Shown: positions 8,155 through 64,000, counted from the first letter of the stretch. The stretch: 64,000 bases of DNA from Candidatus Melainabacteria bacterium (GCA_033763415.1 JANRKP010000024.1:2587-66586), one strand, 5' to 3'. Translations and numbers: made by a program. The notes: generated by a model not told the origin, from the letters alone.

Positions 8155-8203
8155 AACATTTCAATCCAAATTTCATTAGAGAATTGAAGCTAAAACAAAG
8201 TCG

Positions 8204-9472: not shown

Positions 9473-9494
9473 CACAGGGGGGATCTCCAGACGG

Positions 9495-12607: not shown

Positions 12608-12912
12608 GGTGCGTGAACTATTCCTTTAGTGAGCGCGAGGGAGCGGATTACCGACTGGCTGCATCAAGGACTGTGTTTTTTCCAAAGTGGAGAGCCCTTT
12701 AATCATCCATAAAAAATCGCAGACGTCAAAATTGCGTTGATATTTGACACCTTGGTTGGTAACAAAAGAGGGTCGAACATTTACAAACAAAGTATACAAT
12801 CTGCAGATCCAGGACTTAAAAGACAACACTCCTGGAGCCCAAAGCGGAGAACCAGGAGTGTTGAAAAGAAGTGCTCTTACAGCGTTAGCTAAAACACTGT
12901 ACCAGCATTGAC

Positions 12913-19069: not shown

Positions 19070-19679
19070 AAAATGCCAACAGTGACCCTTCACACGCTAC
19101 TTTATGACAGACGCCCGGCCATAACCCTGGTTAAGAACAGGCTCGGCCCGCACCGTTTTGGCATCGCTTCGGTTTAGCAAGAAAAAACCGCAAAGCCCAA
19201 ACGCATGGTTATTATACAGAGAAACCACACGGATACCCATCCCCCCCCTGTGGGCAAAAGCGCCCACGGAGAAAAGGCCTCCCTCCTCCAAGAAAAATGG
19301 TTCCTGCGTTTTAAGACGGTTCGTTAAAGCTTTCGTTGGACTGGGGTTGTTAGACTGGAGTTGTTAGACTGGGTTTATTAAACTGGATTGGTTGGACTTG
19401 ATCCAGGAGGTTGATCCACACTATAAATAGAAGCGTCGGTAAAAACGGCTGATCCGCAGAATATTGCAGCGGCGGCTGCCTACTTGCGCTCTGGGTTCTG
19501 TTTCTGGGGTTTTTCTGCAAAATCCAAAGCAGGCCGTAAAAGAAGCAGACCGTAACAACAGTCCGACTTCTGGCAATTTCAGCCCAGCTCATTTCGTAAA
19601 CCACCGCGCAACGGGACTTGCCCTTTGCTTGAGGTTTTAGTCTTGAGGTTTCGAGCCCACAGGAAATGCAGTTTGTGGT

Positions 19680-49525: not shown

Positions 49526-50185
49526 ATGCTTTTTGCCCCAATGGCTCGCAGGAGTATGGGCTTCCTGCCGGAGCCACTCTTTCGAGAGCAACCACAACCA
49601 CGTTTTTCAAAATCAGTCCAACCCACTTCCTCGCCGGAGCATCCGCCGGAGGCACGCACCCTGGCGCCTGTGTGGAATCAGGTAGACACACTGCTACAAC
49701 CTTTCCTGAGCACGCCTTTTACAGGCAGCACCTCCTGGCCGGGCGTTTTACAGCAAGACGCCACCCCGTTTGCAAACAGTGAACAGTTTCAACAAGTCGC
49801 CTCATTTCAATCCATAACCGATGAAACAGGACACACCTGGCAGCAGAGCGCCGCCGCGCAACGCGCCCAGCGAGACGCTCAGCCAGCCACATTCCAATTG
49901 ACCTACCAACAGGCGCACTACCCATCTTCCGACCAGCCCGAAGCAGCGCCACTACCAGCAGGGTATGTGTTATCTGCCACCGGCACGGAGGCCACCTGGC
50001 CTGCTCAGAAAAAGGTTTTGGGGAACCCCTGGCAACTGACCCAAACTTGGCTGGAACAGGGCAAAATGACAGCCCGGCAACAATGGCAAGCCACCCGTAA
50101 CAGCATTAATGGGGTGGGCAAACACCTGGATCAGCTCATGCAACAACTGTTTGAGCCCACCCAACAAAACGCCTCACCCCTGTAA
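49526..50185 (+). CDS. hypothetical Gln-rich protein (219 aa)
   Basis: Intact ORF. No family recognized. Confidence 0.35.
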   Translation: MLFAPMARRSMGFLPEPLFREQPQPRFSKSVQPTSSPEHPPEARTLAPVWNQVDTLLQPFLSTPFTGSTSWPGVLQQDATPFANSEQFQQVASFQSITDETGHTWQQSAAAQRAQRDAQPATFQLTYQQAHYPSSDQPEAAPLPAGYVLSATGTEATWPAQKKVLGNPWQLTQTWLEQGKMTARQQWQATRNSINGVGKHLDQLMQQLFEPTQQNASPL

Positions 50186-52159
50186 GGCACCTTCCTCTGT
50201 TTGGTAACGGTAATAGCGGGCATAATGGCCGTTGGCGGCCATGAGGCTAGCATGGCTTCCAGATTCCATCACCCGGCCCTGCTCCAAAAACAGAATGGTA
50301 TCCGCCGATTCGATGGTCGACAAACGATGCGCAATGACAATGGTGGTACGGTCCGCCATCAGCCGTTGCAAGGCCGATTGAATCAACCGTTCCGTGGCGG
50401 GATCCACGGCGGCGGTTGCCTCATCCAGCACCAGTACCGGCGGATTGGCATAAAACGCGCGAGCCAACAACAGTAGCTGGCGTTCGCCATTAGATAAATT
50501 TTTACCGCCTTCCAGCAGCGGGCTATGCAGCCCTTGGGGCAAACGCGCCAGCAAGGGCTGTAGGTTGGCCATACTCACGGCGCGGTTCAGTTTGTCGTCA
50601 TCAGGCGCGTCTTCTCCCAGAGCGATATTTTCGGCCACCGTGGCGGAAAACAACCAATCGCTCTGCTGAAGCACGATCACATGGCGGCGAAGGCTGGCCA
50701 GATCAATCTGGCGCACGTCATGCCCGTGTAGCGTCACCTGGCCAGAGGTTGCATCGTAAAAACGGTTCAGCAACCGAACCAGCGTTGTCTTTCCTGAACC
50801 CGATGGCCCGACCAAAGCCAGTACGCGGCCCATCGACGCAGTTGCCTTCCCCTCCCCCTGGGGCGCTTGCGTTTCTTCGGCATCAGAACGCGGCGCAAAG
50901 GAGAATGATACCGCTGACAACACTGGGTGCGCCGGATCGTCGTAGTAAAACGAAACGTTGTCAAAACGAATCTCGCCAGGGGTCGGGGGCAGTGAAACAG
51001 CCTCTGGCGACTGCGTAATTTCCACAGGCGTTTCCAACAACGCCGAAAGCTTTTCAAAGGAGGACAAGCCCGACTGAATCACCATCGCCTTTTGGCTCAA
51101 GTCTTCCACCGGGTTAAACAACATGGGAATAAATTGAAAAAACGCGACCAACTGCCCGAATGTTAAAGCGGGTAAGGCGCTCACGAGCTGTGCCAAACCA
51201 AGCGGCACCTGCTCTACCGTTGATAAACCCAGCGTTAGTGCACCCACCAGTAGCGTTAACAGCATGGCAATAAAGGTTAGGCACTCCACTGCTGCGGTAT
51301 AGCTCCAGTCAAACACAACCGAACGCAGGTTGGCGTTTCGGCTTTGCTGATTGAGCACGCCCAGACGCTGGGAAGTGGCCGCCTGCTGATGGGTGGTTTG
51401 AATCAAATCCAGACCGTCTAACGATTCCTGTAGGTAGGTGTTTAGGGCAGCCAACCGATGGCGGATGTCATCGTAAGCGCGGCGCGAATGCACGCGAAAA
51501 AACTGCGTAATGAACGCCAGCAGCACCAGCACCAACATCATCAGCGTGGCCAGCACCGGGTGCATAAGCCACATCCCCACGATGGCCCCAACAATAATGG
51601 CCAGATCGCTTAAAATGGAAATGCCGCCCGAAGCCAACATTTCACTGAGGTTTTCCACATCATTGGTCAGGCGCGTCATCAGGCGGCCCAGCGGGGTTTT
51701 ACCATAAAACCGCAAAGAAAGGCGCTGGAGGTGTTCATACAACTGCTGCCGCAGGTTGGTAATAATGCGCGTACCCATTGTTTGCGAGTAGGCCATTTGC
51801 CAATACCGCAGCCAATGCGCCACGGCCAGCAACAACAGCAATAGCAGCACCATCACCAGCAAGCCGGGCCAATCACGCCGCTGAATAGGGCCATCAATTG
51901 CCTGCTGAAGCAAAAAGGGTTGTGCGGCCTGCGTCATAGCCAGTAAGGGCAACATCAACGTCGATAAAAACAGTGCCTTTTTCTCGCGCATAAGCAGCGG
52001 CCAAAGGGCTTTTAACAGAGAAAAATCTCGCTGCCAAGGAGCCAGAGCGGTAAACACCCAGCCACCAAAGCGGGTGTGCTGCACTGTTGCATCCATTGCC
52101 GGGGGGTGTGTCGTCTCGTCTTGCTCTTCATAAGCATCGACGATGGGCGCCTGACTCAT
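50174..52159 (-). CDS. ABC exporter ATP-binding/permease subunit 2 of a heterodimer. Carries the degenerate signature LSNGE and a canonical Walker B (DEAT).
   Basis: TMD plus NBD. Walker A GPSGSGKTT. Signature LSNGERQ. Walker B VLVLDEATAAVD. The ATG at 52159 overlaps the upstream gene stop by 4 bp. Confidence 0.85.
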   Translation of the reverse strand: MSQAPIVDAYEEQDETTHPPAMDATVQHTRFGGWVFTALAPWQRDFSLLKALWPLLMREKKALFLSTLMLPLLAMTQAAQPFLLQQAIDGPIQRRDWPGLLVMVLLLLLLLAVAHWLRYWQMAYSQTMGTRIITNLRQQLYEHLQRLSLRFYGKTPLGRLMTRLTNDVENLSEMLASGGISILSDLAIIVGAIVGMWLMHPVLATLMMLVLVLLAFITQFFRVHSRRAYDDIRHRLAALNTYLQESLDGLDLIQTTHQQAATSQRLGVLNQQSRNANLRSVVFDWSYTAAVECLTFIAMLLTLLVGALTLGLSTVEQVPLGLAQLVSALPALTFGQLVAFFQFIPMLFNPVEDLSQKAMVIQSGLSSFEKLSALLETPVEITQSPEAVSLPPTPGEIRFDNVSFYYDDPAHPVLSAVSFSFAPRSDAEETQAPQGEGKATASMGRVLALVGPSGSGKTTLVRLLNRFYDATSGQVTLHGHDVRQIDLASLRRHVIVLQQSDWLFSATVAENIALGEDAPDDDKLNRAVSMANLQPLLARLPQGLHSPLLEGGKNLSNGERQLLLLARAFYANPPVLVLDEATAAVDPATERLIQSALQRLMADRTTIVIAHRLSTIESADTILFLEQGRVMESGSHASLMAANGHYARYYRYQTEEGALQG

Positions 52160-54324
52160 TCGGAAAACACCTCCGCCGGATCTGCAACCGCCCGTAATTC
52201 CGTGGGTTCGTCCTGGGCACAATCAAACGAATGATCGCACTCCTGAACAAACGCCCGATAGGCAGCCACACCCCCAAGCAGCTCCCGATGGGTGCCTTGG
52301 GCCAAAACTTTGCCCTGGCTGAGGAAAACCACGTGGTCTGCCAGGTGAACCCAGGGCATTCGGTGGCTGGCAAACAGCACCGTTTTGGGCCGAACCGTCT
52401 GAAACCGCCACTGCTGCAACGCATTAATCAGGCGACGCTCTGTATCGGCGTCCACGCTGGCAAAGGGGTCATCTAACAACAACAGGGGGCTATCCCGCAG
52501 CAGGGTTCGCGCCAGGCTTACCCGCTGACGTTGCCCGCCAGACAGACTCAAGCCCCGCTGTCCTACCAGTGTTTCCAACTGTTGGGGCATGCGGTCAATA
52601 TCGGCGCGAAGTTGCGACAGATCGGCCATTGTCTCAACAGCGGCCCCATCAACCTGAGGCGAACCAAAACGCAGGTTTTCCGCCATACTGGCAGAAAACA
52701 GCAGGCTGGATTGCGGCATCAGAGACACCCAGGCGGCCACATCAGCCGCAGGAATATGGGCCAAATCGTGGTTATTTAAAAAAATGCTGCGCTTTGGCAC
52801 AGGGTAGCGCTTGGCAATTAAACGCAACAGGGTAGATTTTCCGGCGCCAACAGGCCCGATCAACGCCACCAGACTGCCCACCGGCACCTGGAATGAAACT
52901 TCATTCAAGACAAGACGCGACGGCTGGTTGTCTTTCAATACCGCCAGGCTTGGCTGTTCCGGGTCTGTGGAGGTGGATTCCGGTTGCAGGGGCTGATACG
53001 TGGGCTCGTAGGCAAACGTCAGCTTTTCCACCGAAACCGCTACGCCTTGCGCCTCGGCCTGCAACATTGCCTCGGAAAAGTGGGTCTCTATCGGCAAAAG
53101 TGCCTGCGAAGGCACGGGCACCTGCAACAACTCCGTCACACGTCCCCAGGCAACCCGGCCCTGCTGAACCAGCGTAACAGCCCAGCCCAAGGACAACGTC
53201 GGCCAGGCCAGCGCTTCCAGGTACAGGGTAAACGCCACAAAATCGGTCCGATGAAACTGCCCAGCCAGTGCCTGTTGCCCACCCACCCACAACACCAGTA
53301 GCAGTCCCAGGCCGGTCACCAAACTCATTAACAAGTACAACCAAATCCGACTGTGGATCAAGGTATGGCTGGCCTGAAAGTAGCGCTCTCCCAACTGTGA
53401 AAAACGCTTCGTCTCCCAAGGCTCTATCGCATAGGACTGAATCACGTGAATAGCAGACAGATTTTCCTGAATTCGGCTGGTTATTTGCCCCAACAGCGCC
53501 TGAACTTGCTGAAACGACGCCTTTACCTGGCGGCTGAGCAATGCAATGGCGGCTAGCGTTATGGGGTAAAGCAGGCCACAAGCCAATGTTAACGGGGCAT
53601 TCAGTTGCCACATGGCGGGCAAAGTGGCGCCGTATGCAAACAGCGTATTGAACACCAACATAATGCCGCCCCCCACCATAAAGCGCACCGCTTTCAAATC
53701 ATTGGTGAGTCTCGACATCACCTCCCCGGTGGAGTTCACGTCATAAAAAGCCGGAGGCAAACACAACAGGCGATCAAATACTTGCTGGCGCAGGGCTGCC
53801 TCCAACCGATGCGCCACCCCCAGCAACAGCATCCGCGAGGCAATTCGCACCAACAGCATCGCAACAATGACACCCAGCATCGGGTATAAATGATCCTGCC
53901 AAAGGGTATGCCAGTATACCAGGGCAGCCCCAGGCTCCAAGGATTCCAAAAGCTGCTTAAAGGCCAGTGGCAGCCAAGTCCTCAGTACATTCGTCATCGC
54001 CAGCATCAGCAGGCCCAAAACCAACCAATGCCAATCGCCTAACAGTCGGGTTACTAGCAGCCTCCAGCTTTGCTCAGGTGGGCCAGTAGGCTTCTGTGAC
54101 GAAACACGCCAAGTGCTTAACGGTGTACTCAAGGGCGCACGTCCCAGGCGAAACGCTTGCACGCATCGCCGTGCCCAACAGAAAAGGAAGAAAAACGAGT
54201 CACAAAGCCGCCACTTGATTCGCTTAGAACCACAACTATATTGTAGACTATGACAACTGCCTGCCAATGCCAAGAGCCAGACGGCTACACAGGCATATTG
54301 TAAAGGTTTTGCTGCCCTTATCAT
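52156..54324 (-). CDS. ABC exporter ATP-binding/permease subunit 1 of a heterodimer. Canonical LSGGQ, but Walker B has LLLDD instead of DE. The 5' end is probably shorter than the ORF.
   Basis: Walker A GPVGAGKST. Signature LSGGQRQRVSLAR. Walker B LLLLDDPFASVD. Confidence 0.85.
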   Translation of the reverse strand: MIRAAKPLQYACVAVWLLALAGSCHSLQYSCGSKRIKWRLCDSFFFLFCWARRCVQAFRLGRAPLSTPLSTWRVSSQKPTGPPEQSWRLLVTRLLGDWHWLVLGLLMLAMTNVLRTWLPLAFKQLLESLEPGAALVYWHTLWQDHLYPMLGVIVAMLLVRIASRMLLLGVAHRLEAALRQQVFDRLLCLPPAFYDVNSTGEVMSRLTNDLKAVRFMVGGGIMLVFNTLFAYGATLPAMWQLNAPLTLACGLLYPITLAAIALLSRQVKASFQQVQALLGQITSRIQENLSAIHVIQSYAIEPWETKRFSQLGERYFQASHTLIHSRIWLYLLMSLVTGLGLLLVLWVGGQQALAGQFHRTDFVAFTLYLEALAWPTLSLGWAVTLVQQGRVAWGRVTELLQVPVPSQALLPIETHFSEAMLQAEAQGVAVSVEKLTFAYEPTYQPLQPESTSTDPEQPSLAVLKDNQPSRLVLNEVSFQVPVGSLVALIGPVGAGKSTLLRLIAKRYPVPKRSIFLNNHDLAHIPAADVAAWVSLMPQSSLLFSASMAENLRFGSPQVDGAAVETMADLSQLRADIDRMPQQLETLVGQRGLSLSGGQRQRVSLARTLLRDSPLLLLDDPFASVDADTERRLINALQQWRFQTVRPKTVLFASHRMPWVHLADHVVFLSQGKVLAQGTHRELLGGVAAYRAFVQECDHSFDCAQDEPTELRAVADPAEVFSE

Positions 54325-54426
54325 AAAAAAGTTCGTTCATAAAAGTTCGTTTGACTTTTCAACACCCTTGCGCGATAAGTAACAGAAAATAAAAAATAAA
54401 ATTCAGTTTTTTTATTCAATAATTTT

Positions 54427-54501
54427 GGGCGGTTAGCGCAGTGGTAGCGCACCACATTGACATTGTGGTGGTCACAGGTTCGAATCCCGTACCGCCCACC
54501 A
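54427..54501 (+). tRNA. tRNA-Val (anticodon GAC)
   Basis: Cloverleaf folded by hand. Acceptor GGGCGGT/ACCGCCC. D arm GCGC-AGTGGTA-GCGC. Anticodon stem CCACA/TGTGG with loop TTGACAT, giving anticodon GAC. T loop TTCGAAT. 3' ACCA. Confidence 0.85.
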
Positions 54502-54516
54502 TTTTTTTAAAAGAAA

Positions 54517-54551
54517 AAAGCAGCGATTGGAACCACCAGTCGCTTTTTTAC
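54517..54551 (+). terminator. Rho-independent terminator after tRNA-Val
   Basis: agcgattgg-aacca-ccagtcgct hairpin (9 bp, one G-T wobble) followed by tttttt. Confidence 0.55.
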
Positions 54552-54599
54552 TATTGAAGAAACCCCAAATATGGCCACAGAGCAAACGTAATAACGAGC

Positions 54600-55040
54600 G
54601 TGACATCCAGTTGGCAAGGAAAATATATCTTTACAATCCAAAGATGCAGCCAACCTTTATGTTACAAAGCAACAAAGGTTGGAAGCCTCCCCTCTACAAG
54701 GTGTTTTCCATTGTCTCCTATTTACGAAGTTGTGACCGGGCAAATCTTGCTTTCTAAACGAAGCGAGTTCTTTAGGCTCCACAGCGAAATGCTCCTTCCA
54801 ATGATGAAAGAAGTGGGGATTCGCCCGCTCGCTTTGCTCATTACGGAAATTGGCCATTATGGTAAATTCCTGGATATTTACATTTACAGTAGTTTGGCCG
54901 ATTACGAACAAAAAACGAACCAACTGCTCCAGGATCCCAGAATGGCTCCCTATTATGCGGCGGTGGGCCAATGTATTGCAGGCTCCATCCAAGTAGAAAT
55001 TATGGCGGATCTCCCCTATGCCAAACACTGGGTTGACTAA
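54600..55040 (+). CDS. NIPSNAP-family (Dabb-like stress-responsive dimeric alpha/beta barrel) protein. Likely TTG start at 54711 with an aaggtg RBS.
   Basis: IYEVVTGQI...ITEIGHYGKFLDIYIYSSLADYEQKTNQLLQDPRMAPYYAAV matches the NIPSNAP pattern (IYElRtY.lkpg..., iW.y.sladre......dp.w). Confidence 0.55.
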   Translation: MTSSWQGKYIFTIQRCSQPLCYKATKVGSLPSTRCFPLSPIYEVVTGQILLSKRSEFFRLHSEMLLPMMKEVGIRPLALLITEIGHYGKFLDIYIYSSLADYEQKTNQLLQDPRMAPYYAAVGQCIAGSIQVEIMADLPYAKHWVD

Positions 55041-56142
55041 AACCTGGACAGGCCGCATCCACTATTTTACGGGCGGCACGGTTGCAGAACCAAAGCAAAT
55101 TACTTACACAGCAGAGCGTTGGCATCGGTCCCTGTTTATTAAACAGCGTTTATTGGCGGCCTACGGGGTTAATGCGCAGGCAAAAGTTTTGGTGTGTTAT
55201 CCTTTTTCCCCTTGGTCAATTGGTTCGATTTTTACTGAGGCCAGTTTGTATTGCGGCGCGGAAGTTCTCCCTCTGGGCAATCATTCTACGCAAGCGGGAA
55301 TGATTGAGTCGATTCTGAGTTTTCAGCCTACCCATATTTGCTCCACTGCCCGAAATCTAATTTACCTGGCGCATCGCCTCAAAGCACTTTCGCCCAAAAA
55401 CTGGCGGCCCGAATTTACCACTGCATTTGTGGCGGGCGAAGTGTTAAAACAGCCTGTGAGAGAAAAAGCGTCTAGTTTATGGCAGGCTCAAATCGTCAAT
55501 GTCTATGGTATGGCCGAATTTGACATGCTGGGAAGCGAGCTTCCTGACCTGCCCAATACGCTATCTCTCGTGCCTGAATTTGACTACGCCATACGAGAGC
55601 TCGCATCTTCTGAGGAAAGCCTACTGGAATCCAATTACATTCCATTGGAATTGGGCATTCAGGGAGAACTGATGGTTAAAGAACGCGGCAGTTCTCAGTG
55701 GTATGCAACCGCAGATCACATTCAGGTTGTCGGCCAAACGCCCTCTCTATGGATGGAGCAGAGCAATTTGGTTCAGATTCAGGTCTTGGGCCGAATGAAC
55801 GAAAGTGTTTCTTTAGCCGATGGAACGAAAATTATTGGCGCACAGGTCGATAAAGTGTTGCTGGATCATCCAGATTTGAATCACGTGCAGGTGACGGTCA
55901 ATAAGTCGAAAAATGGCGAAAGTATTCATATTGACTGCGTTCCAAAAACGGAGCGGCAGTTACCAGACCGTCAAAAAATAAGGCAGAGCCTGCTAAAATA
56001 CAATATTGATTTGGTTGACAGTGTTCGCTCTGGCTATATTTCAAAAATTGATGTCCGCTTTATTCAAGAGGCAGAGTTACAACGTTCTATTCGAGGAAAA
56101 ATTCCACGGCTCCTGGAGGTCTGCCCCTATGAATCTGTATAA
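55018..56142 (+). CDS. ANL-superfamily adenylate-forming enzyme, phenylacetate-CoA ligase (PaaK) / coenzyme F390 synthetase-like, N-terminally short
   Basis: P-loop-like TGGTVAEPKQITYTAER near the N-terminus (compare PaaK SGTTGKPTVV.YT). A VYGMAEF adenylation-core motif. Overlaps the downstream radical SAM gene by 14 bp. Confidence 0.5.
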   Translation: MPNTGLTKTWTGRIHYFTGGTVAEPKQITYTAERWHRSLFIKQRLLAAYGVNAQAKVLVCYPFSPWSIGSIFTEASLYCGAEVLPLGNHSTQAGMIESILSFQPTHICSTARNLIYLAHRLKALSPKNWRPEFTTAFVAGEVLKQPVREKASSLWQAQIVNVYGMAEFDMLGSELPDLPNTLSLVPEFDYAIRELASSEESLLESNYIPLELGIQGELMVKERGSSQWYATADHIQVVGQTPSLWMEQSNLVQIQVLGRMNESVSLADGTKIIGAQVDKVLLDHPDLNHVQVTVNKSKNGESIHIDCVPKTERQLPDRQKIRQSLLKYNIDLVDSVRSGYISKIDVRFIQEAELQRSIRGKIPRLLEVCPYESV

Positions 56143-57466
56143 TCAGCTTGTCACACACCCTCATTTTGAACAGCGTCCAATTGATTACATTCGCTGGTAC
56201 CCCAAGGCATTGACTCCCAGTGAAACATTGACATTCGATCACACTCCTGCCACAGGAAAGATAGAAGGCATCTACATACACGTGCCTTTTTGCGATCAGC
56301 TGTGTCATTTTTGCCCGTACAACAAGCGTACTTCCGATTTAACATTAATTGAATCTTATGTGGACGCATTAATCACAGAGATTCGCTTATATCAAGAAAA
56401 AATAGACATCTCCGAATTAAATTTTATTTATTTCGGGGGTGGAACTCCCAGTGTTTTAAGCCCATCTCAAGTAGAAAAAATATTAGCCTCCATTCAAAAC
56501 TGGAAAAATATCTCACCCAAAACAGAGATTACATTCGAGTCTCATCCCTCTCATTTAACAGTCCCTTACCTCAAGAATTTAAAGCAACTCGGAATTAACC
56601 GAATCAGCTCTGGAATTCAAGCCTTTGACGACAAACTATTACGCCAGATGGGAGCCAATCATACACCTTCCCAAGCCTTTTCTGCGATTGAGGCAAGCGC
56701 AACCGTGATGGGGCACATTGCGATTGATTTACTTTACCGATGTGAGGGGCAATCCACAGAACATTGGATGGCACAATTGAAACAGGCGACAGAATTACCC
56801 GGTGTCACCCACCTTAGTTGTTACAGCCTGGTTTTAGATGATGAATCTAAACAACCTTCCCGCCTGGAAGAAGCCAAAATGATGACCGAGATGCTGGACT
56901 ATCTTTCCAGCCTAAATTACACGCATTATGCGTCGTGCGCTAGTGGTGGATTCGATTTCACGCAAGCTGGCTACCAAAGCATTTACGAAACGCGCCATTG
57001 GGAAGCGCCACAAGCGTCTTTTGTAGGGCTGGGACCAGGCGCGCTGGGCTATGTCGGTCATTACACAACCGTGAACGGACTCGACGTCAATCGATACATT
57101 CAGAAGCTCTCTGAAAAAAAGTTACCCATTGTTTCAGCCACATTAGCAGATGAAGTTGAACAGATGAGACGTTATTTTGTACTGGGTGTCAAAACGCTTC
57201 AAGTCCCATTAACCCCGTTCCAACAACAATTTAACCAAGACCCCGCTATTATTTTCAAACAAGAATTCGAACAGCTTCTCCGCTTGGGCTATGCAACTGT
57301 TGATGCAGACTTTTTAAAGTTAACTGCACTGGGACGCCTTTTTGTGGACAGCATTTCCGCTATATTTTTTAGCGCAACGCAGCGAGACATTCCTCACCCC
57401 GAAGAGCCGGAAATTCGCGCAGCAGAGCTGGCAGTTTCTCGAATACCAGTTTTAAGTTCACGTTAA
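56129..57466 (+). CDS. HemN/HemW-like radical SAM enzyme (coproporphyrinogen-III oxidase family, class C)
   Basis: CxxxCxxC radical SAM cluster motif FCDQLCHFC. The YFGGGTPS motif typical of the HemN family. Confidence 0.8.
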   Translation: MNLYNQLVTHPHFEQRPIDYIRWYPKALTPSETLTFDHTPATGKIEGIYIHVPFCDQLCHFCPYNKRTSDLTLIESYVDALITEIRLYQEKIDISELNFIYFGGGTPSVLSPSQVEKILASIQNWKNISPKTEITFESHPSHLTVPYLKNLKQLGINRISSGIQAFDDKLLRQMGANHTPSQAFSAIEASATVMGHIAIDLLYRCEGQSTEHWMAQLKQATELPGVTHLSCYSLVLDDESKQPSRLEEAKMMTEMLDYLSSLNYTHYASCASGGFDFTQAGYQSIYETRHWEAPQASFVGLGPGALGYVGHYTTVNGLDVNRYIQKLSEKKLPIVSATLADEVEQMRRYFVLGVKTLQVPLTPFQQQFNQDPAIIFKQEFEQLLRLGYATVDADFLKLTALGRLFVDSISAIFFSATQRDIPHPEEPEIRAAELAVSRIPVLSSR

Positions 57467-57496
57467 TCATTTTCTATCAAGGAGCAATACAACATT

Positions 57497-58690
57497 ATGG
57501 GCAGCCTTTTTACAAAATTAGCACTTACAGGAATAACTCAACTAACACCAATGACGGGTCTTCCTGGAGAATTAATTAGTACAAAACCAGTTCTTGAAGC
57601 AAACCGTCAGGAAGTCGTTTCTGAAGCCTCAATCAGCCCCTCTGCCGATGCATTGAGAACTGCCGTATTGGGCGTTGCAGAAGCAAAAGCAGATTCTTCC
57701 AACTTGCCGTGTGCGAGCACGGATCATCCAGCCTATTGTCCAATTGGAGTTGCTGCGTTAGCTGCGGAATTTCAGCTTTTGCAACAGCAGCAAGGATTGG
57801 GAGAGGGCGGCATGGTGTCATCTAACAGTCACACTGTAAAAGCAGGACTGCAAGGAATTGAAAATTACGGAAAAGCCGTGCTATCCGGCGATCAAATCCC
57901 GCTGGTTCACAAAGCATTTGAAAATTTAGAAAATAAAATTGAATACGAACTCGATGAATACGTCTCCAGACTTTACAACGTACCAACCTGGGCGCCTATG
58001 TTAATTCGGTTTATGTATGATCTTCATCTAGATGAAGCTTACGAAACAGAAGACCCAATGGCTGCGGTATTTGGCAGTGCAGCTATTCCATTACAAAATT
58101 TCTGGAATTACCTCACATTGCTAGACTTTGATAGCTGGTACAAAATTCGTATGGAAGCCTATACTGACGAATTTATAGATTTCAAAACATATACCATGCA
58201 AGAAGCACGTATGATGGCTCATTGCTATCAATCGTTAAACGCTGAAAGCCTTCAAGCTGCACAATTTATTAGCAGAGATGTTGCCTGTCAAACTGCGTGG
58301 AAAGCCGTTGCTAACCACACTGAAGAACACGAACTAAAAGAAAATCCTGAATTTAACGCCTATTGGGCAGGTTCCATCAGCGACGTAGCCAGACGTGCCG
58401 CTATGGAAATCGTCGCTCTTGCCAACGGATACGCAGACATCGATCAAAGCTGCTTAAGGCTATTAAAAGTAACTTTTGAAGAGCTCAATATTAATTACCA
58501 TCAAGACATTCCTGCTGACAAACAGTGCTTTGATGCAAAGCAGTTTTTTGATGTCATGGCTGCAGGCTCTCACTTGGTGCATCTAACCCAAAGTGCAGAT
58601 GCAAGAGACATGCGCGGCCTGACTTTTTTAGACGGCTTTGGTATTGGCAAAAATACGCAGGAAAGTACCTCTCAAGCACCTCGCCATTAA
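57497..58690 (+). CDS. hypothetical protein (397 aa), orphan in the island
   Basis: Intact ORF with a strong aaggag RBS. No known domain recognized. Confidence 0.45.
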   Translation: MGSLFTKLALTGITQLTPMTGLPGELISTKPVLEANRQEVVSEASISPSADALRTAVLGVAEAKADSSNLPCASTDHPAYCPIGVAALAAEFQLLQQQQGLGEGGMVSSNSHTVKAGLQGIENYGKAVLSGDQIPLVHKAFENLENKIEYELDEYVSRLYNVPTWAPMLIRFMYDLHLDEAYETEDPMAAVFGSAAIPLQNFWNYLTLLDFDSWYKIRMEAYTDEFIDFKTYTMQEARMMAHCYQSLNAESLQAAQFISRDVACQTAWKAVANHTEEHELKENPEFNAYWAGSISDVARRAAMEIVALANGYADIDQSCLRLLKVTFEELNINYHQDIPADKQCFDAKQFFDVMAAGSHLVHLTQSADARDMRGLTFLDGFGIGKNTQESTSQAPRH

Positions 58691-58742
58691 ATTTTTGAAC
58701 ACTTAAGTCCATTCCGTTCGCACGAAGGATGATCTAAATTCA

Positions 58743-59693
58743 ATGTCTAACATCCACACAGAAAATCCTAAATTCCCGGAAATTGTTCGTTTTCCGAGCA
58801 ATATATTGCTTGAACTCAACAAAAAAACACCTATTCGAAATATTTTACACATTTTATTTTGTACAGGGTTGTTTATATTACTTGGTCTGTTCAACACGCA
58901 ATACGTTCCGTGGTATTTATGGCCTTTATTGTGGCTCTTCCAAGGTTTTATGATGGTAGGCTATTTAAGCATAAGCCACGATGGCGCTCACTTTAGCTTA
59001 TTTCATCGTCCTTGGCAAAATTTGCTGTGTGGCAGACTTTGTTCACTGGTCATCCTTCAGTGCTTTTCGGTATATCGGGCCTATCATATGGAACATCACG
59101 CGCATACGGCAACAGATAAAGATACAGAACCTCGCGGAGAATTTGAAGATCTGAAAGATTATTTGTTATGTCTGAGTGGAATTCAATTTGCGCTTGACAT
59201 ATCTCTTACAGGGTGGGATACCTTGCGAGGAAAATATGCCGACTACCTAAAAACGCCTGGTGATCGCTCTGCCGCCAAGCAAGATACACTAGCATTAATT
59301 GCCTGGTTATTTTTAATGCTAATGTTCACATGGCAGGCGCCACAATTAACTCTCAATTTATACTGGGGGCCAATACTGTTTTATTTTCCAGCCGTTATTT
59401 ATTCCGGTCTTTTAGAACATTACGGCTGCGAGGAGTCAATTAATCCTCTAACAAATACCCGAAGTGTTCGTCCAGGAAGAATTTTTAATTTCTTTGACTG
59501 GAATGCAGGCTATCACGCAGAGCACCATTTATTCCCCGCAATGCCCTCAAGAAGCTATCCAAAAGTTGCCTCGATTTTAGGTAGCAGTCTTAAATACATA
59601 GAAACCTCTTATTTTCAGTTTCATTGGCGCTTAATACAACAATTACTAAACAAAAAACAAGCTCACAGAAATTTAACAGGAGCAATCAGCTAA
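58743..59693 (+). CDS. Membrane fatty-acid desaturase/hydroxylase superfamily protein (three His boxes)
   Basis: His boxes HDGAH, HMEHH and HAEHH, with hydrophobic helices between them. Confidence 0.7.
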   Translation: MSNIHTENPKFPEIVRFPSNILLELNKKTPIRNILHILFCTGLFILLGLFNTQYVPWYLWPLLWLFQGFMMVGYLSISHDGAHFSLFHRPWQNLLCGRLCSLVILQCFSVYRAYHMEHHAHTATDKDTEPRGEFEDLKDYLLCLSGIQFALDISLTGWDTLRGKYADYLKTPGDRSAAKQDTLALIAWLFLMLMFTWQAPQLTLNLYWGPILFYFPAVIYSGLLEHYGCEESINPLTNTRSVRPGRIFNFFDWNAGYHAEHHLFPAMPSRSYPKVASILGSSLKYIETSYFQFHWRLIQQLLNKKQAHRNLTGAIS

Positions 59694-59694
59694 C

Positions 59695-60480
59695 ATGACT
59701 GATGAAATTTGTATAAATAGTGTCCTAAAAAGCCCCAAAAAAATGAGATTTTTCGTTAAATTAGTCGAAAGAGAATGCCATGATACACAAGAGCGTGTCG
59801 CACTGTTGCGACACCGGTTAAAGGCTATTCGCTACCAATACCAATTAATGGAACAGCAAAAAATCCATTATGCTTTTTACCCCATTAATAAAGCTGAGGC
59901 TTATCTGTTGTACATGATTGACAGCTTGGAAGATCTCGATTTGTTACTTAAAAGAGATCCTTATTTTCCTCACACGCGAGCCGACGTCATTCCCGTAGTT
60001 AACACGGAAGCTTTAGTTCGGGAAGCACAAGATTATTTAGGAGTAGAGCATTTTAGCCAGGCAGATATCGATCAGGGCGTTTTAGATTATGGCGTACAGC
60101 CAGTTGATCAGGAAGCCGATTATTTGTTGGCAATCAAAGAAGTACCTCCTTTCAGCCCACTTCTTTCAGAAGAGGAGCAAAATGATGTACATTACCGAAC
60201 TATTTTGGCCCAAGAAGGACATTTCAGCCAAATTGAATTCTCCGATGAAAATCCAGTTGGCATGCAAGTAGGAATCACTGTCGTTAAGGGTCCGCTAGAT
60301 GAAACAAAAGCCCTGGTTGAGTCTTGCCCCGTATTTCCAGATACAATGGTAGAGTACACACATTTAATGACTTTAAAGCAGGCTTGGAAATATACAGTAG
60401 AGGAATTAGCCAAACTGCGTAGACCATTGACCACGGACGAAGCAAAATGGCCATTTGAAGCCGTAACCACTGCGAATTAG
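59695..60480 (+). CDS. hypothetical protein (261 aa), orphan in the island
   Basis: Intact ORF immediately following the desaturase-like gene with a 1-bp spacing. No known domain. Confidence 0.4.
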   Translation: MTDEICINSVLKSPKKMRFFVKLVERECHDTQERVALLRHRLKAIRYQYQLMEQQKIHYAFYPINKAEAYLLYMIDSLEDLDLLLKRDPYFPHTRADVIPVVNTEALVREAQDYLGVEHFSQADIDQGVLDYGVQPVDQEADYLLAIKEVPPFSPLLSEEEQNDVHYRTILAQEGHFSQIEFSDENPVGMQVGITVVKGPLDETKALVESCPVFPDTMVEYTHLMTLKQAWKYTVEELAKLRRPLTTDEAKWPFEAVTTAN

Positions 60481-60512
60481 GTTGAAAATTAAACTAAGAG
60501 GTTCCTAATCTT

Positions 60513-60968
60513 ATGCAGCAATTGTTTATAGTTGAATCAGTTCACCATATTGGATTAGTCGTTCGTAACGAACAAAAAGCTCGCACATTTTACACGGACA
60601 TTCTTGGATTTCAGCCCCATCATCGAGTTGATTCCTGGCTAATGCTTAATGACAAATTAAGTATTCATTTAATTGAAATTCCAGAAGCTGAAATCGTTGA
60701 TTCTTTATTCCATCAAATTAATCACGTAGCCATTCAAGTATCTGATTTAAAACCAATCTTGAAATTATTGCTAGAACATGGTCAAGCGCCCTTCCAAATG
60801 GACTTTGAAGGAGCAGAAAAACCACTCACTGATCCAGAAGACCCTATGAACTTTGGATTGGGAACCATTTTTGTAAACGACCCTGATGGGAATTTAATTG
60901 AATTTTTGCAGATGGGTCATGGTGTTTTTACAGAAGACACTGAAAGTATTGCTTATCAAACTGCATAA
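60513..60968 (+). CDS. VOC / glyoxalase-bleomycin resistance-dioxygenase superfamily protein
   Basis: N-terminal VHHIGLVVRNEQKARTFYTDILGF and C-terminal IFVNDPDGNLIEF are the paired beta-alpha-beta-beta-beta VOC motifs. Confidence 0.65.
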   Translation: MQQLFIVESVHHIGLVVRNEQKARTFYTDILGFQPHHRVDSWLMLNDKLSIHLIEIPEAEIVDSLFHQINHVAIQVSDLKPILKLLLEHGQAPFQMDFEGAEKPLTDPEDPMNFGLGTIFVNDPDGNLIEFLQMGHGVFTEDTESIAYQTA

Positions 60969-61007
60969 AGCTGCCGTCAAGTTAATTTACAAGAATCAAA
61001 GCTATTA

Positions 61008-61673
61008 TTGACTACAATGACTCAGCAATCTGAAAACATCTCTATTGAAGAACAAATAAAACAGGCCTATTTTTGGGCGGCTTACGAAGACGAACAACCT
61101 GCATTGATGCTGGATGGAACCGTGTGTCAACCGTGGCAAGTTCGTGAATGGGGCGGGTTTTCTCTCAGAGGGCTGATGGAAAAACACTTTGAGGAAGCTT
61201 TTGCGTTATCGGAGCCCTGGGTGCATGACCCATCGGTCAACGTTCGGCGAGGTGCCCTAATTGGGTGTAAATTAACCAAAAAGTCCGCCACGCCAGAGCG
61301 GGTTCATCAAGTACTGGAAAGAATTAGCCACTTTATGTCCGATGAAAACGACTATATTAAAAAGAATTGCGGTCCGTTTGTTGTCAATGAATTAGGCAGC
61401 CTTCAGCCAGAAATTGTGCTCAATTGGCTTAAGATCCAAGCCCAAATACCCAATGTTCACGTGCGCGCTAACGTGGCAAAGGCATTTACACAAGCTTTTG
61501 GCAAACGCTATCCGCAAGAAGCCATGTCCGTTTTGGAATTGCTTCGAGACGATCCAGAAAGAAGAGTGCAATCGGCTATTATTTCTGCCCTTAAAAATTT
61601 AAATAAAAATGGCGCTGTTTCCTCCGAAAATATTCGGCAGCGCTTTCCAAAACAGGCAGAGAAAGTGCTTTAG
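61008..61673 (+). CDS. HEAT-like protein, possibly of the DNA alkylation repair enzyme (AlkC/AlkD-like) family
   Basis: DENDYIKKNCGPFVVNELGSLQPEIVLNWL resembles the family pattern D..wYV.K..GW.LRE....PE.v..FL. This is a weak call. Confidence 0.35.
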   Translation: MTTMTQQSENISIEEQIKQAYFWAAYEDEQPALMLDGTVCQPWQVREWGGFSLRGLMEKHFEEAFALSEPWVHDPSVNVRRGALIGCKLTKKSATPERVHQVLERISHFMSDENDYIKKNCGPFVVNELGSLQPEIVLNWLKIQAQIPNVHVRANVAKAFTQAFGKRYPQEAMSVLELLRDDPERRVQSAIISALKNLNKNGAVSSENIRQRFPKQAEKVL

Positions 61674-62455
61674 TATCTTGAATTACCCTCAGCCTGCTCA
61701 AATAGTGCTAGATTTTCCACAACCTGGCTACATTGCTCTGGAGAGTTGTCTAGCGCCTGAGGATAATGTAAAACCCAGTCTTCATCAAATATCGCCATAT
61801 TGGGTACAGTTGCTGGAATTGCTAACGCCATCGAATGGGCCGTATCTGCCACCAGCGCTGAGCGATGCAACAAAACAGGCTGTATGGCAGTGGTCACAGG
61901 TTCTATCCCTACGGCAGGTATTGCCAAAAGATGGTTCAAGCTTGTGCCAAACAAAGATTGTTGACTGCTAGCATGCAAACGACCAATTAGTATCAACGGG
62001 GCCCCAGAGTGCCTGGTAAGTCGATCCGTAATTTTACCGTGCCAGGCGGCGTGGAGACTTTCTGCCCCGCTATCGCATAGACTGGGATCAAAAGTGGGAA
62101 GACCATAAACCGGCACCTGTTTTAATTTAGCAACCCGAAGTATTTCCAATAAACCGGCCAAAACACGTTTTCGAGCAGATAGACTTTCAATATTCAGATG
62201 AATCCATAAGTAATAATGAAGCGGCCAAAATAAGGGCTTGTCTGCCAAATAATCTTGGACGAAACCTTCTATTTCTTCAGAAATATGCTCCAAAAATAAT
62301 ACGGGGGTAATTTCCTCTGGCGCCTCTAACAGGAGACGTGCTAACAAATATTTAGAGAAAATGGTCAGATGATCCTCTGCCAGCACCAAGCCGCAAGATT
62401 TTGTAAACAAGCTCCACACAGCAGACAAACTCACAGGGAACGCTCCATTAAACAA
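61670..62455 (-). CDS. hypothetical protein (261 aa), the only minus-strand gene in the island
   Basis: Intact ORF convergent with the flanking plus-strand genes. Confidence 0.4.
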   Translation of the reverse strand: MFNGAFPVSLSAVWSLFTKSCGLVLAEDHLTIFSKYLLARLLLEAPEEITPVLFLEHISEEIEGFVQDYLADKPLFWPLHYYLWIHLNIESLSARKRVLAGLLEILRVAKLKQVPVYGLPTFDPSLCDSGAESLHAAWHGKITDRLTRHSGAPLILIGRLHASSQQSLFGTSLNHLLAIPAVGIEPVTTAIQPVLLHRSALVADTAHSMALAIPATVPNMAIFDEDWVLHYPQALDNSPEQCSQVVENLALFEQAEGNSRY

Positions 62456-62508
62456 AATTTTCGGGTTATTACAACAATTGTTGAATTTTATTATACCCTG
62501 AGTTAGGA

Positions 62509-63063
62509 TTGTTTTCAGTAAATTGTGCGGTCCACAGCGCTACCCCGTTTAATCAGCGTCGTATTGGAATGGCTATGTCTCACGTAGATGCGTTTGTTCG
62601 TAAAAATCAAACCCAAATAACGATTCGGACTGCTACTTTGAACGATATGGAAGCCTTGCTCCCGTTATTTCATGCGTATCGAAAAACGTTGGAGCGTGAA
62701 CCGAACGAGGCGCTAACTCGCAAATTTATTCAAGATCGTCTCCAATATAACCAAACGCTTATGTTTGTTGCATTTTGCGATCAGGTACTCTGCGGCATGC
62801 TTCACGTAAGCCCCATCTATTGCCTGAGAACACTAAAAACACAATGGTTGTTGGACAATCTCTACGTAGTGCCCGAATACCGGCAATACCCCATTCAGGT
62901 ACAACTGGTCAAAGCCGCGCAGCACCACGCCAAACAACGCGCTTCGGATTGGATGTTTAGCTTTATTGCGCGGGACAATCAGTCGTTAAAATCATTGCTC
63001 ATCGATCAATTTCACTTTTTGCCCGACCAGGACCATGGATTTTACTATGCGCCTGTTCAGTAG
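62509..63063 (+). CDS. GNAT-family N-acetyltransferase (probable)
   Basis: LLDNLYVVPEYRQYPIQVQLVKAAQHHAKQ resembles GNAT motif A (V.P.yRg.GiG..L). Confidence 0.45.
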   Translation: MFSVNCAVHSATPFNQRRIGMAMSHVDAFVRKNQTQITIRTATLNDMEALLPLFHAYRKTLEREPNEALTRKFIQDRLQYNQTLMFVAFCDQVLCGMLHVSPIYCLRTLKTQWLLDNLYVVPEYRQYPIQVQLVKAAQHHAKQRASDWMFSFIARDNQSLKSLLIDQFHFLPDQDHGFYYAPVQ

Positions 63064-63072
63064 CTTTTAAGC

Positions 63073-64000
63073 AATGACGCCCCTTTGCGCCACTATGCTT
63101 TTTTTAGCCAAGCACCAGACGACTACGCCAACCCCTTATTTGGCCCGCGCACAACGTCTGTTTAAAACATCCGAATCCGCACTGTTATGTGACTTGTACG
63201 GCCAGGACTATGTTTGGGCTCTCTGTAGCGATAACATTATTCGGGAACTGAGACATAAACTAAAGCAAGGAAAAATTTTGTCTTTTCGGGAGCTGGAAGC
63301 ACAAGCCAGAGCGCACTACCGCCAAATTAAACTGGAAAACGAAACACGGCTACACAAACAGTTTTTAAATACGCTCAATCCTACCGATCTCGCCCTGTAT
63401 CAGTATTTGAGTCAACACGGGTTTGATAAAGCGGCTTGCCAGCCAGAGGCGGTAGAAGCGCTGTTAAATCAGACTGGGCCAAATATAACGCCGAGTCGGT
63501 TTATGGAGGAGTCTTTCTTTCGCTCTGACGATCTGGGCCCCATCATTGGCAAAATGTTAGAGGCAAGATCTGCTTTTGGCCTGGACCCGTTTGGTGTAGA
63601 GGCCTTTGGCATTCCTCGCACGGAGACGGATGGCTACGAAAAAATTGTGTGCCAGGTCAATCGAGACACTGGTACGAGCCGGTGGCAGGGAAATGCGGTT
63701 GGAAAAATGTTTGAGTCCTCCCTGTCTATGCTTGACAGAGAAGCTTTGCAGACGGTTTGGCAACCGGTAACTGCCCCCCAGGAACTGTTACAAGTGCCTG
63801 AACTGGCCAATTATCTTGCCCACTTTGAACAACTACAATTGGCGGTATGGAAAAAGCAGTCGCCATTGCTCCAACTGCCCCAACCGCTGATGACAGTATA
63901 TGCGCTGAAACTGCCGCATAAAACGGCGGCGGCGGTCTGGATGGCCAGCAGTCCGCAAAATATCCCCCCGGTGTTTCGCCACCTGGAACAGTGTTTTTTC
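63073..64000 (+). CDS. hypothetical protein, 3'-truncated by the window edge
   Basis: Open frame from ATG 63073 to the window end (MTPLCATMLFLAKHQ...). It is not in the ORF track because no stop falls within the window. Confidence 0.4.

Follow-up and report, generated by a model that had tools for sequence, protein, structure and literature searches.

A short PaaK-type adenylase, a HemN-like radical SAM protein and a NIPSNAP-like protein are encoded as a conserved three-gene unit of a rare mobile gene cluster

We analyzed a 64,000-nucleotide (nt) stretch of DNA from Candidatus Melainabacteria bacterium, hereafter the window, in which two overlapping genes encode a PaaK-like adenylating enzyme and a HemN-like radical S-adenosylmethionine (SAM) protein (Table 1; coordinates count from the window's first letter). 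In the list of open reading frames (ORFs), the radical SAM gene is contained in a plus-strand ORF at 56006–57466. Since its homologues all begin at the position of ATG 56129 (MNLYNQ...), we assign the gene to 56129–57466, with a GGAGG element 11 nt upstream of the start codon. The ATG precedes the adenylase stop codon (ending at 56142) such that the two genes share 14 nt, in agreement with the 14-bp overlap reported in an earlier note on this DNA. A third gene, encoding a NIPSNAP-like protein, runs 23 nt into the adenylase gene; the mechanical ORF start is at 54600, but the homologues start at a PIYEVV motif and the most likely start is TTG 54711. The three genes are the first of eight on one strand (54711–61673), with intergenic gaps of at most 52 nt, that follow a tRNA-Val gene and a terminator-like hairpin.

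The gene pair and the upstream NIPSNAP-like gene are conserved as a unit across distantly related bacteria. A scan of 185,579 species genomes with an adenylase profile returned ten loci (from Bacteroidota, Rhizobium alvei, Rhizobacter, Gamma- and Betaproteobacteria, Pyrinomonadaceae, Acidobacteriaceae, Phycisphaeraceae and Latescibacterota), and the radical SAM gene lies downstream of the adenylase gene in all nine that are informative. An independent metagenome scan, based on clade-specific C-terminal motifs of the radical SAM protein, gave 14 loci, one being a duplicate of locus L002; this set is unbiased with respect to the adenylase, which is nevertheless encoded upstream in 11 of 11 informative loci. 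Family hidden Markov models (HMMs) were mapped onto all loci, of which 26 are informative for the pair and 22 for the NIPSNAP-like gene. The adenylase and radical SAM genes occur together in every one of the 26 loci, from at least seven phyla, and in 25 of them the adenylase gene immediately precedes its partner on the same strand. Only Acidovorax facilis departs from this order: the same genes are present, and the adenylase gene is found on the opposite strand, 3.4 kb away within the cluster. The genes around individual homologues are likewise arranged in a 182-kb metagenome contig, an 11.9-kb contig, Shouchella clausii and Sinorhizobium meliloti. The junction between the two genes is an overlap of 4 nt in 11 loci and of 14 nt in three, including the window, and no junction is wider than +38 nt. 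The NIPSNAP-like gene is upstream of the adenylase gene in 21 of 22 loci, usually overlapping its start, and the window protein shares 47–64% identity with homologues in eight other loci, across phyla.

The translationally coupled unit is composed of three genes: NIPSNAP-like, short adenylase and HemN-like radical SAM. Because adjacency and overlap are strictly conserved across phyla, a functional module is strongly supported, and we are highly confident that the pair, or the triad, acts as one functional unit. The earlier note had proposed a two-enzyme module; the module itself stands, but its membership has to be widened to include the NIPSNAP-like protein.

By sequence profile and predicted fold, the protein encoded upstream of the radical SAM gene is assigned as an ANL enzyme of the PaaK type, as the earlier note had supposed. 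The core motifs of ANL enzymes are the P-loop (A3), YGxTE (A5), TGD (A7), GRxxD/E (A8) and a catalytic lysine (A10). In the window adenylase, the P-loop TGGTVAEPK spans residues 18–26 and is accompanied by YGMAE, GRMNE and the lysine of a C-terminal RGK; its A7 motif is TAD, where relatives have TGD. Gly19, Gly20, Thr21, Tyr163, Gly164, Glu167, Thr231, Asp233, Arg259 and Lys361 are invariant among eight family members; with these positions retained, the adenylase looks competent. The protein passes the Pfam AMP-binding model (PF00501) with 41.6 bits against a cut-off of 29.9, the match covering residues 17–173 and only profile positions 169–329. A search of the PDB with the single sequence gave weak matches (best E-value 1.6e-5), and a profile built from the eight members matched phenylacetate-CoA ligases at 5e-14 to 2e-13. 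An AlphaFold (AF2) model (pLDDT 81.9, pTM 0.80), which like the other structure predictions in this work rested on a comparatively shallow alignment, was matched by Foldseek to BT_0428, PaaK1, PaaK2, NatL2, AjiA1 and ClxA, with E-values of about 2e-21 to 1e-16 and template-modelling (TM) scores up to 0.69. BT_0428, PaaK1 and PaaK2 were the best matches (about 2e-21), and the model has the two-domain ANL fold.

The adenylase is shorter than PaaK at its N-terminus. In the profile alignment PaaK1 is matched from residue 98, at its SSGTTGKPT P-loop, to position 10 of the adenylase family, and about 90 N-terminal PaaK residues are missing; the claims that the P-loop lies about 18 residues from the N-terminus and that the usual N-terminal PaaK domain is absent are thus both accurate. 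A miscalled start does not explain the short N-terminus, because an upstream stop codon closes the ORF, a conserved gene fills the upstream space, and the P-loop lies at most 14 codons past the stop of that preceding gene, as is the case in nearly all loci. When 1.84 billion representative proteins were searched with HMMER, just 69 matched at E-values of 1e-30 or below. The full-length matches down to about 173 bits are nearly all 325–379 residues long and begin to align within their first 17 residues; those below about 155 bits are mostly 405–451 residues long and begin to align at residues 63–100, as ordinary PaaK-like proteins with an N-terminal segment. A word-indexed search of 5.8 billion clusters retrieved five members only. 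The reduced N-terminus thus characterises the whole of a small, distinct family.

The NIPSNAP-like gene is not simply a split-off PaaK N-terminus, since its product belongs to a different family (Pfam NIPSNAP); it is possible that the protein replaces the PaaK N-terminus in trans. The partnership of adenylase and radical SAM protein is older than the short form, because in Micromonospora sp. NBC_01412 (L019, 9950–14187) a full-length AMP-binding gene of 421 residues comes after a sister-clade radical SAM gene (34% identity). An NMT1/MqnA-fold-like gene and a HEAT gene also follow the radical SAM gene in this locus. The Micromonospora cluster adjoins a Lant_dehydr_N/thioesterase gene and two aminotransferase genes.

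The adenylase falls far below the equivalog cut-offs of PaaK proper (TIGR02155, 27.6 against 646.3 bits; NF041878, 35.5 against 700). Its top NCBIfam match is coenzyme F390 synthetase, as might be expected if it were an F390-synthetase-like nucleotidyl transferase that AMP-ylates a phenolic hydroxyl. That match, however, reaches 42.5 bits against a cut-off of 458.7 and is confined to the P-loop region, and both profile and fold searches place the adenylase with carboxylate-activating PaaK enzymes, such that we give this activity only a very slender chance. Since aryl or aryl-alkyl acids are the substrates of all its nearest relatives in sequence or fold (PaaK, BT_0428, NatL2, AjiA1, ClxA, Cfl, 4-chlorobenzoate ligase and DhbE), the adenylase probably activates an aromatic carboxylate.

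The downstream protein contains the Radical_SAM (PF04055, 64.9 bits) and HemN_C (PF06969, 27 bits, cut-off 24) domains, the latter being the HemN C-terminal domain. Among NCBIfam models, HemW (TIGR00539) ranks first with 196.7 bits against a cut-off of 205.4, a near miss that is not decisive alone; ChuW/HutW (TIGR04107) scores 162.6 bits against 400, and HemN (TIGR00538) 127.8 against 324.95. The window protein is 24% identical to Escherichia coli HemW, 22.5% to HemN and 23% to ChuW of E. coli O157, and its clade is about equally distant from the three. In a neighbour-joining tree, 23 clade members are monophyletic and separate from E. coli HemW, HemN and ChuW, although with these three as its only references the tree does not resolve which characterised protein is nearest to the clade. 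The H250NxxYW255 motif, which all bacterial HemW are described to share (PMC10320005, citing Dailey 2015), is found in none of 109 full-length clade members, 102 of which have YExxHW at the aligned position. Clade members further possess 47 extra N-terminal residues (YIRWYPK) that lack a HemW counterpart and loosely recall the RYTSYPT segment of HemN, a HYASCASGGFD sequence, and a C-terminal tail (HPEEPEIR, about 40 extra residues) extending past the end of the HemW model. Judged from these sequence features, the radical SAM protein belongs to a distinct HemN-like clade and is not HemW. Of the two outcomes that the earlier note named as refuting its proposal, a radical SAM protein that clusters with HemW and an upstream ORF outside the ANL enzymes, neither is observed.

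A function in tetrapyrrole metabolism would assign the radical SAM protein as a HemW/ChuW-like heme chaperone or modifier, let the adenylase activate a propionate side chain, and have the HEAT and barrel proteins of the cluster bind heme or bilin. HemW and ChuW are indeed the two top NCBIfam models, the HEAT protein has a weak match to NblB (bilin-lyase-like), and NIPSNAP/ABM-fold proteins include IsdG-type heme oxygenases. Nevertheless, the HemW motif is replaced, the HemW and ChuW scores are below cut-off, and the clade stands apart from the E. coli proteins. No locus contains heme-uptake or heme-synthesis genes, and the embedded mqn genes, the desaturase-like enzyme, the amine oxidase and the major facilitator superfamily (MFS) pumps described below point elsewhere. 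We regard a tetrapyrrole system as distinctly improbable.

The residues expected for radical SAM chemistry are retained. In HemN numbering, Cys62, Cys66 and Cys69 are invariant, Tyr56, His58, Gly113, Glu145, Gln172 and Asp209 are present in 23 of 23 aligned members and Thr114 in 22; their assignment to the SAM site follows the structure of HemN. Because the cysteine triad and the HemN SAM-site positions are conserved, the enzyme looks catalytically competent. The fourth cysteine of HemN (CxxxCxxCxC) is absent, position 71 being Tyr or Phe, as is the RNFQGY segment, for which positions 308–313 read x-Y-E-x-x-H. The best PDB sequence match is HemN (2.4e-24), which together with the HemN SAM-site residues, the N-terminal segment with an aromatic-Tyr-Pro motif that is missing in HemW, and the similar distance to HemN, HemW and ChuW would be compatible with a HemN-type oxidative decarboxylation, or another non-C1 (one-carbon) radical reaction, of a carboxylate substrate; the adenylase would then act on a different carboxyl or in a later ligation. 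However, the low identity to HemN, the score far below the HemN cut-off and the loss of the fourth cysteine and RNFQGY segment are difficult to reconcile with such a reaction, and those HemN-like enzymes of biosynthetic clusters that have been characterised mostly transfer C1 units (PMC10114718). We consider a reaction of this kind unlikely.

The signature motifs of the naphthoquinone-modifying MenK/MqnK enzymes (PMC10320005, Table 2) are likewise missing from the 109 clade members: YFxxxRxE, QxTxYPLx and GxxFxxxYxGGGT occur in none, and NxFxxxxY in two. HemW, HemN, ChuW, MenK and, for the adenylase, PaaK proper are thus each contradicted by at least one defining feature. The clade has more than 100 homologues at 40–60% identity in many taxa, as well as the sister clade at about 34% identity that includes Micromonospora, and is best filed as an uncharacterised HemN-like subfamily with obligate truncated PaaK-like and NIPSNAP-like partners.

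Table 1. Features of the window and embedded mqn gene sets of related loci (locus numbers precede the coordinates where these do not refer to the window)
Feature	Coordinates	Strand	Basis and remarks
tRNA-Val (anticodon GAC)	54427–54501	+	ARAGORN; marks left edge of the low-GC segment with the cluster
Terminator-like hairpin, 9-pair stem then TTTTT	54522–54554	+	Consensus scan; between tRNA and cluster operon
NIPSNAP-like protein (dimeric alpha+beta barrel), about 109 residues	54711–55040	+	Pfam NIPSNAP 29.4 bits (cut-off 22.3); probable TTG start
Short PaaK-type ANL adenylase, 374 residues	55018–56142	+	Pfam, profile, AF2/Foldseek
HemN-like radical SAM enzyme, 445 residues	56129–57466	+	CxxxCxxC, GGGTP, HemN_C domain
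Conserved 397-residue protein	57497–58690	+	No Pfam or NCBIfam match; in window, L001, L002 and L014
Membrane fatty-acid (FA) desaturase-type enzyme, probably diiron	58743–59693	+	Pfam FA_desaturase 133.7 bits; 9 loci
261-residue protein, read as tandem muconolactone-isomerase-like (ferredoxin-fold)	59695–60480	+	Weak PDB profile match
VOC/glyoxalase-bleomycin-resistance protein, 151 residues	60513–60968	+	Pfam Glyoxalase 52.1 bits; 12 loci
HEAT-repeat protein, 221 residues	61008–61673	+	Pfam DNA_alkylation and HEAT_2; generic HEAT fold
261-residue protein, peripheral	61670–62455	-	No Pfam hit; 49% identity to L001:16643–17383, syntenic there alone
GNAT acetyltransferase, peripheral	62509–63063	+	Pfam Acetyltransf_1; 58% identity to L001:17487–17972, syntenic
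mqn set	L011 12433–16294		
mqn set	L012 9866–13920		
mqn set	L017 4285–8334		
mqn set	L024 4546–8355		
mqn set	L026 3947–5901		
mqn set	L027 2410–6423		
mqn set	L033 2059–5005		

Genes that recur around the triad were defined by all-against-all clustering and HMM mapping of the loci. The HEAT-repeat protein is found in 17 loci and in the distant Micromonospora locus, the tandem muconolactone-isomerase-like protein (235–260 residues) in 16–17, and a TIGR01210/RaSEA-like radical SAM protein (183.5 bits, cut-off 212) in seven; the VOC and desaturase-type proteins are counted in Table 1. Other recurrent genes encode a flavin-dependent (FAD) amine-oxidase-like protein, a SAM (AdoMet) decarboxylase-like protein and a 400-residue unknown protein. 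Pfam detects no PP-binding carrier domain among the window's ten cluster proteins, none of the families conserved across loci is a carrier, and the small NIPSNAP-like protein has no invariant serine. Two further assignments of the cluster were discarded. A defence system was dropped after PADLOC gave no hits for any of the ten cluster proteins. A ribosomally synthesized and post-translationally modified peptide was rejected, as the small conserved ORFs are antisense shadows of real genes; one loosely conserved family of small ORFs (fam12) is present in four loci only.

The desaturase-type protein of the window has three intact histidine boxes, read from the translation as HDGAH, HMEHH and HAEHH, and a weak GntB-like NCBIfam match. 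Its gene occurs in the window and in L001, L002, L007, L011, L013, L014, L024 and L027, and the RaSEA-like gene in L003, L005, L009, L010, L012, L017 and L034. The two are never found together (hypergeometric p of about 0.001 for 18 loci, calculated by hand and ignoring relatedness), and their loci are interspersed on the radical SAM tree. The isomerase-like gene usually adjoins whichever of the two is present. This distribution hints that the two enzymes replace each other in one step, possibly under oxic and anoxic conditions, respectively. The isomerase-like protein itself has no Pfam hit; its profile matches 5-chloromuconolactone dehalogenase in the PDB (E-value 0.008) over the N-terminal half only, its alignment contains 30 invariant positions, and the tandem repeat was read by inspection of the sequence.

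Conserved VOC and muconolactone-isomerase-like proteins next to a PaaK-type fold could also be taken to indicate a catabolic or detoxification island for an aromatic acid, in which a PaaK-like CoA ligase starts the pathway and the VOC (ring-cleavage type) and isomerase-like proteins continue it; the Sinorhizobium locus additionally contains genes for a glutathione S-transferase and a MocA-type oxidoreductase. However, no locus encodes an enoyl-CoA hydratase, a thiolase, a dehydrogenase set or a thioesterase, the VOC protein is a single module of 150 residues, the adenylase is far below the PaaK equivalog cut-off (27.6 against 646), and one third of the loci include mqn genes, which are biosynthetic. 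A catabolic island is in our view improbable.

The HEAT protein passes the Pfam DNA_alkylation model (PF08713) with 26.1 bits against a cut-off of 21, and its homologues are labelled AlkC by the Joint Genome Institute. Its profile matches AlkD2 (3.5e-8) and AlkC (1.7e-5), and AlkD2 is among the best TM-scores of the predicted structure (0.59–0.63; pLDDT 92). Considering that the HemN-like enzymes YtkT and C10P make cyclopropane warheads (PMC10114718), the cluster could specify a genotoxin of the yatakemycin/CC-1065 type, with a HemN-like cyclopropanase and with the HEAT protein, as an AlkD-like glycosylase, and a VOC binding protein providing self-protection. Generic HEAT proteins nonetheless score higher in the profile search (PP2A-A, 1.6e-13), the Foldseek matches are weak (best E-value 5e-4) and headed by designed repeat proteins, and neither benzodipyrrole-type nor other recognisable scaffold genes are present. 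What the cluster has in common with YtkT/C10P and the AlkD-like YtkR2/C10R5 is a HemN-like enzyme together with a HEAT-like, only tentatively AlkD-like protein that passes the DNA_alkylation model, and we judge a genotoxin of this type highly improbable.

In seven loci, representing at least four positions on the tree, a set of MqnE-like, MqnA-like, MqnC and MqnD-like genes is inserted between the radical SAM gene, which it follows directly, and the HEAT gene (Table 1), often followed by the AdoMet-decarboxylase-like gene and then the HEAT gene. A comparable set is known from the gon cluster of Streptomyces caniferus for PM100117/PM100118, where dedicated mqnA/C/E/D copies supply 1,4-dihydroxy-6-naphthoate for C-methylation by a methylase and for an AMP-dependent ligase (PMC4763440). 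One third of our loci have the same mqn set beside the adenylase and radical SAM genes. In the gon cluster, the methylase is reported to be of the ubiquinone/menaquinone type, not a radical SAM enzyme, and the ligase domains reside in polyketide-synthase-type proteins; the window is without mqn genes.

The cluster is rare, mobile and horizontally spread, and comprises about eight genes. In the window, the guanine-plus-cytosine (GC) content falls from about 0.55–0.57 to 0.36–0.49 (about 0.44) from 54001 on and climbs back near 63.5 kb, which delimits a low-GC segment at 54001–63500 whose right-hand end is undefined. This segment beside tRNA-Val resembles a tRNA-adjacent genomic island, although neither a direct repeat of the tRNA-Val 3' end nor an integrase is found within the window. 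The flanks of related loci contain resolvase, transposase and toxin-antitoxin genes, genes of a type IV secretion system and a relaxase (L007), or recombinases. Neither the window adenylase nor the Sinorhizobium radical SAM protein had a match when the proteins of PLSDB plasmids were searched, and plasmid carriage is therefore not documented despite the flanks of L007. One metagenome-assembled genome of Gammaproteobacteria (MFD04716.bin.2.275) contains the cluster twice (L012 and L017), with many genes split across reading frames, reflecting either indel errors in the assembly or decay of the cluster.

Based on these observations, we consider it an even chance that the triad is the invariant core of a mobile cluster that makes or remodels a small aromatic molecule. 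The broader statement that the cluster makes a small molecule is probable. Regarding the chemistry, C1 transfer is a tentative proposal, and a substrate of the naphthoate type is more tentative still, and less likely again for the window itself. The most far-reaching version appears somewhat unlikely, namely that the triad is a new three-component system diverting naphthoate from the futalosine pathway, or an equivalent aromatic acid, into a new class of redox-active small molecules, with interchangeable O2-dependent (membrane diiron) and O2-independent (RaSEA-like) versions that move among at least seven phyla.

For the substrate, the order of steps and the type of reaction, we infer the following scheme: (i) at the expense of ATP, the adenylase would turn an aryl or aryl-alkyl carboxylate into its acyl-adenylate, the acid in mqn-bearing lineages most plausibly being 1,4-dihydroxy-6-naphthoate; (ii) the acyl group would go straight to an acceptor amine or hydroxyl, as with NatL2 and AjiA1, two PaaK-like ligases that work without a carrier protein, or would stay on the enzyme complex, because the cluster encodes neither a carrier protein nor a CoA-handling enzyme; (iii) the small barrel (NIPSNAP-like) protein may stand in for the missing N-terminal microdomain of the adenylase; (iv) the HemN-like enzyme would cleave SAM reductively and act on the activated or ligated aromatic, most likely adding a SAM-derived C1 unit to an sp2 carbon as a class C methylase, with a HemN-type oxidative decarboxylation being less likely; (v) one further step would be catalysed, in concert with the tandem isomerase-like protein, by the membrane diiron enzyme or elsewhere by the RaSEA-like radical SAM protein, the two alternatives being read as O2-dependent and O2-independent; and (vi) binding, detoxification or export of the product would fall to the VOC and HEAT proteins and, in some genomes, to MFS pumps. 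In general terms, the cluster proteins outside the triad would oxidise, rearrange, bind or export the product. Addition of C1 units to sp2 carbons, including those of naphthoquinones (MenK), is common among class C enzymes (PMC10114718), and NosN adds a C1 unit to the NosI-activated, carrier-bound methylindolic acid (PMC5585349).

Several observations weigh against this scheme. No acceptor for the acyl-adenylate was identified, and the results do not separate C1 transfer from decarboxylation or from a non-catalytic role of the radical SAM protein. HemW is still the best-scoring NCBIfam model, just 9 bits under its cut-off, and the MenK-type motifs are absent from the clade. The roles given to the NIPSNAP-like, isomerase-like, HEAT, VOC and 397-residue proteins are guesses, and the view of the desaturase-type and RaSEA-like genes as alternative enzymes derives solely from their distribution. 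Finally, two thirds of the loci, including the window, are without mqn genes, and some of the mqn-less hosts (Sinorhizobium, Rhizobium and Acidovorax) are not known to produce menaquinone; because of this, a naphthoate substrate may hold for a subset of the loci alone.

Among characterised systems, the closest in logic is that of nosiheptide. The earlier note had likened the pair to the tailoring enzymes NosI and NosN; the NosI/NosJ/NosN precedent is real and its genes likewise lie in one cluster (PMC5585349), but the window cassette is not a member of that system, and its pair is the core of a larger conserved cluster. The nosiheptide system needs the phosphopantetheinyl carrier NosJ and the hydrolase NosK, and no NosJ-like carrier accompanies the pair. 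The NosN homologue NocN matches the window protein over the radical SAM core only (residues 48–234, 5e-24), such that the two are not close relatives. Moreover, thiopeptide genes are absent, and the adenylase here is of the short PaaK type and preceded by a NIPSNAP-like gene.

The individual proteins resemble known enzymes to differing degrees. HemW (YggW) shares with the window protein a CxxxCxxC motif that lacks the fourth cysteine and the HemN_C domain, in addition to being the best-scoring model; the window gene, however, resides in a mobile cluster and not in a housekeeping context, and its product differs by the low identity, the YExxHW motif and the terminal extensions. The PaaK-like ligases PaaK1/2, BT_0428, NatL2, AjiA1 and ClxA have the two-domain ANL fold in common with the predicted structure of the adenylase, but are only 14–18% identical to it and carry an SSGTTGKPT in place of a TGGTxxxPK P-loop, and PaaK has about 90 more N-terminal residues. 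The class C enzymes MenK, MqnK and MenK2 are HemN-like and modify a naphthoquinone ring; the embedded mqn genes point to a substrate of this type, and the defining motifs of these enzymes are absent or nearly so from the clade. No description of this cluster was found in the literature, which yielded general reviews only; subscription papers were thinly covered, and a prior description is possible.

Misannotation of HemN-like proteins as coproporphyrinogen oxidases is routine, and according to reviews several of their clades have no known function (PMC10114718). One such clade is now defined by the YExxHW and HYASCASGGFD signatures and the HPEEPEIR tail, together with an obligate truncated adenylase and a fixed third gene. 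To enzymologists it offers a compact three-protein system, and to genome miners a marker for a rare cluster that crosses many phyla, with about 50 adenylase families among the 1.84 billion protein representatives. If the link to the futalosine pathway were true, the cluster would join PM100117/18 as a second example of specialised metabolism that draws on menaquinone precursors, and would be the first in which a radical SAM C1 transferase takes part. The desaturase-like and RaSEA-like genes, which exclude each other, may represent another instance of replacement between aerobic and anaerobic enzymes.

The two peripheral genes at 61670–63063 are shared by the window with L001, the closest related contig, and with none of the other loci, and could serve in tailoring or resistance specific to this lineage. 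The likely start of the GNAT ORF is the methionine at residue 23, at about position 62575. Just past the cluster in L001, at 18014–19168, lies a gene for a protein with an AvrB_AvrC domain (type III effector family). On the other, high-GC side of tRNA-Val, two overlapping ATP-binding cassette (ABC) exporter genes (50174–54324, minus strand) immediately precede the tRNA in the window and are not found in related loci; the first of them, which was scanned, has fused membrane and ATPase domains. Further upstream, at 47418–49364, a RibD ORF (deaminase and reductase) carries a C-terminal tail of about 280 residues that is rich in Pro, Thr, Ser, Gln and Glu, has no domain match and is unusual for RibD. 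Finally, the minus-strand region 6283–15927 encodes a 1004-residue protein with 24 RTX calcium-binding repeat stretches near an ABC transporter (9495–11762) and an outer-membrane efflux protein (6283–8154), which together look like a type I secretion locus.

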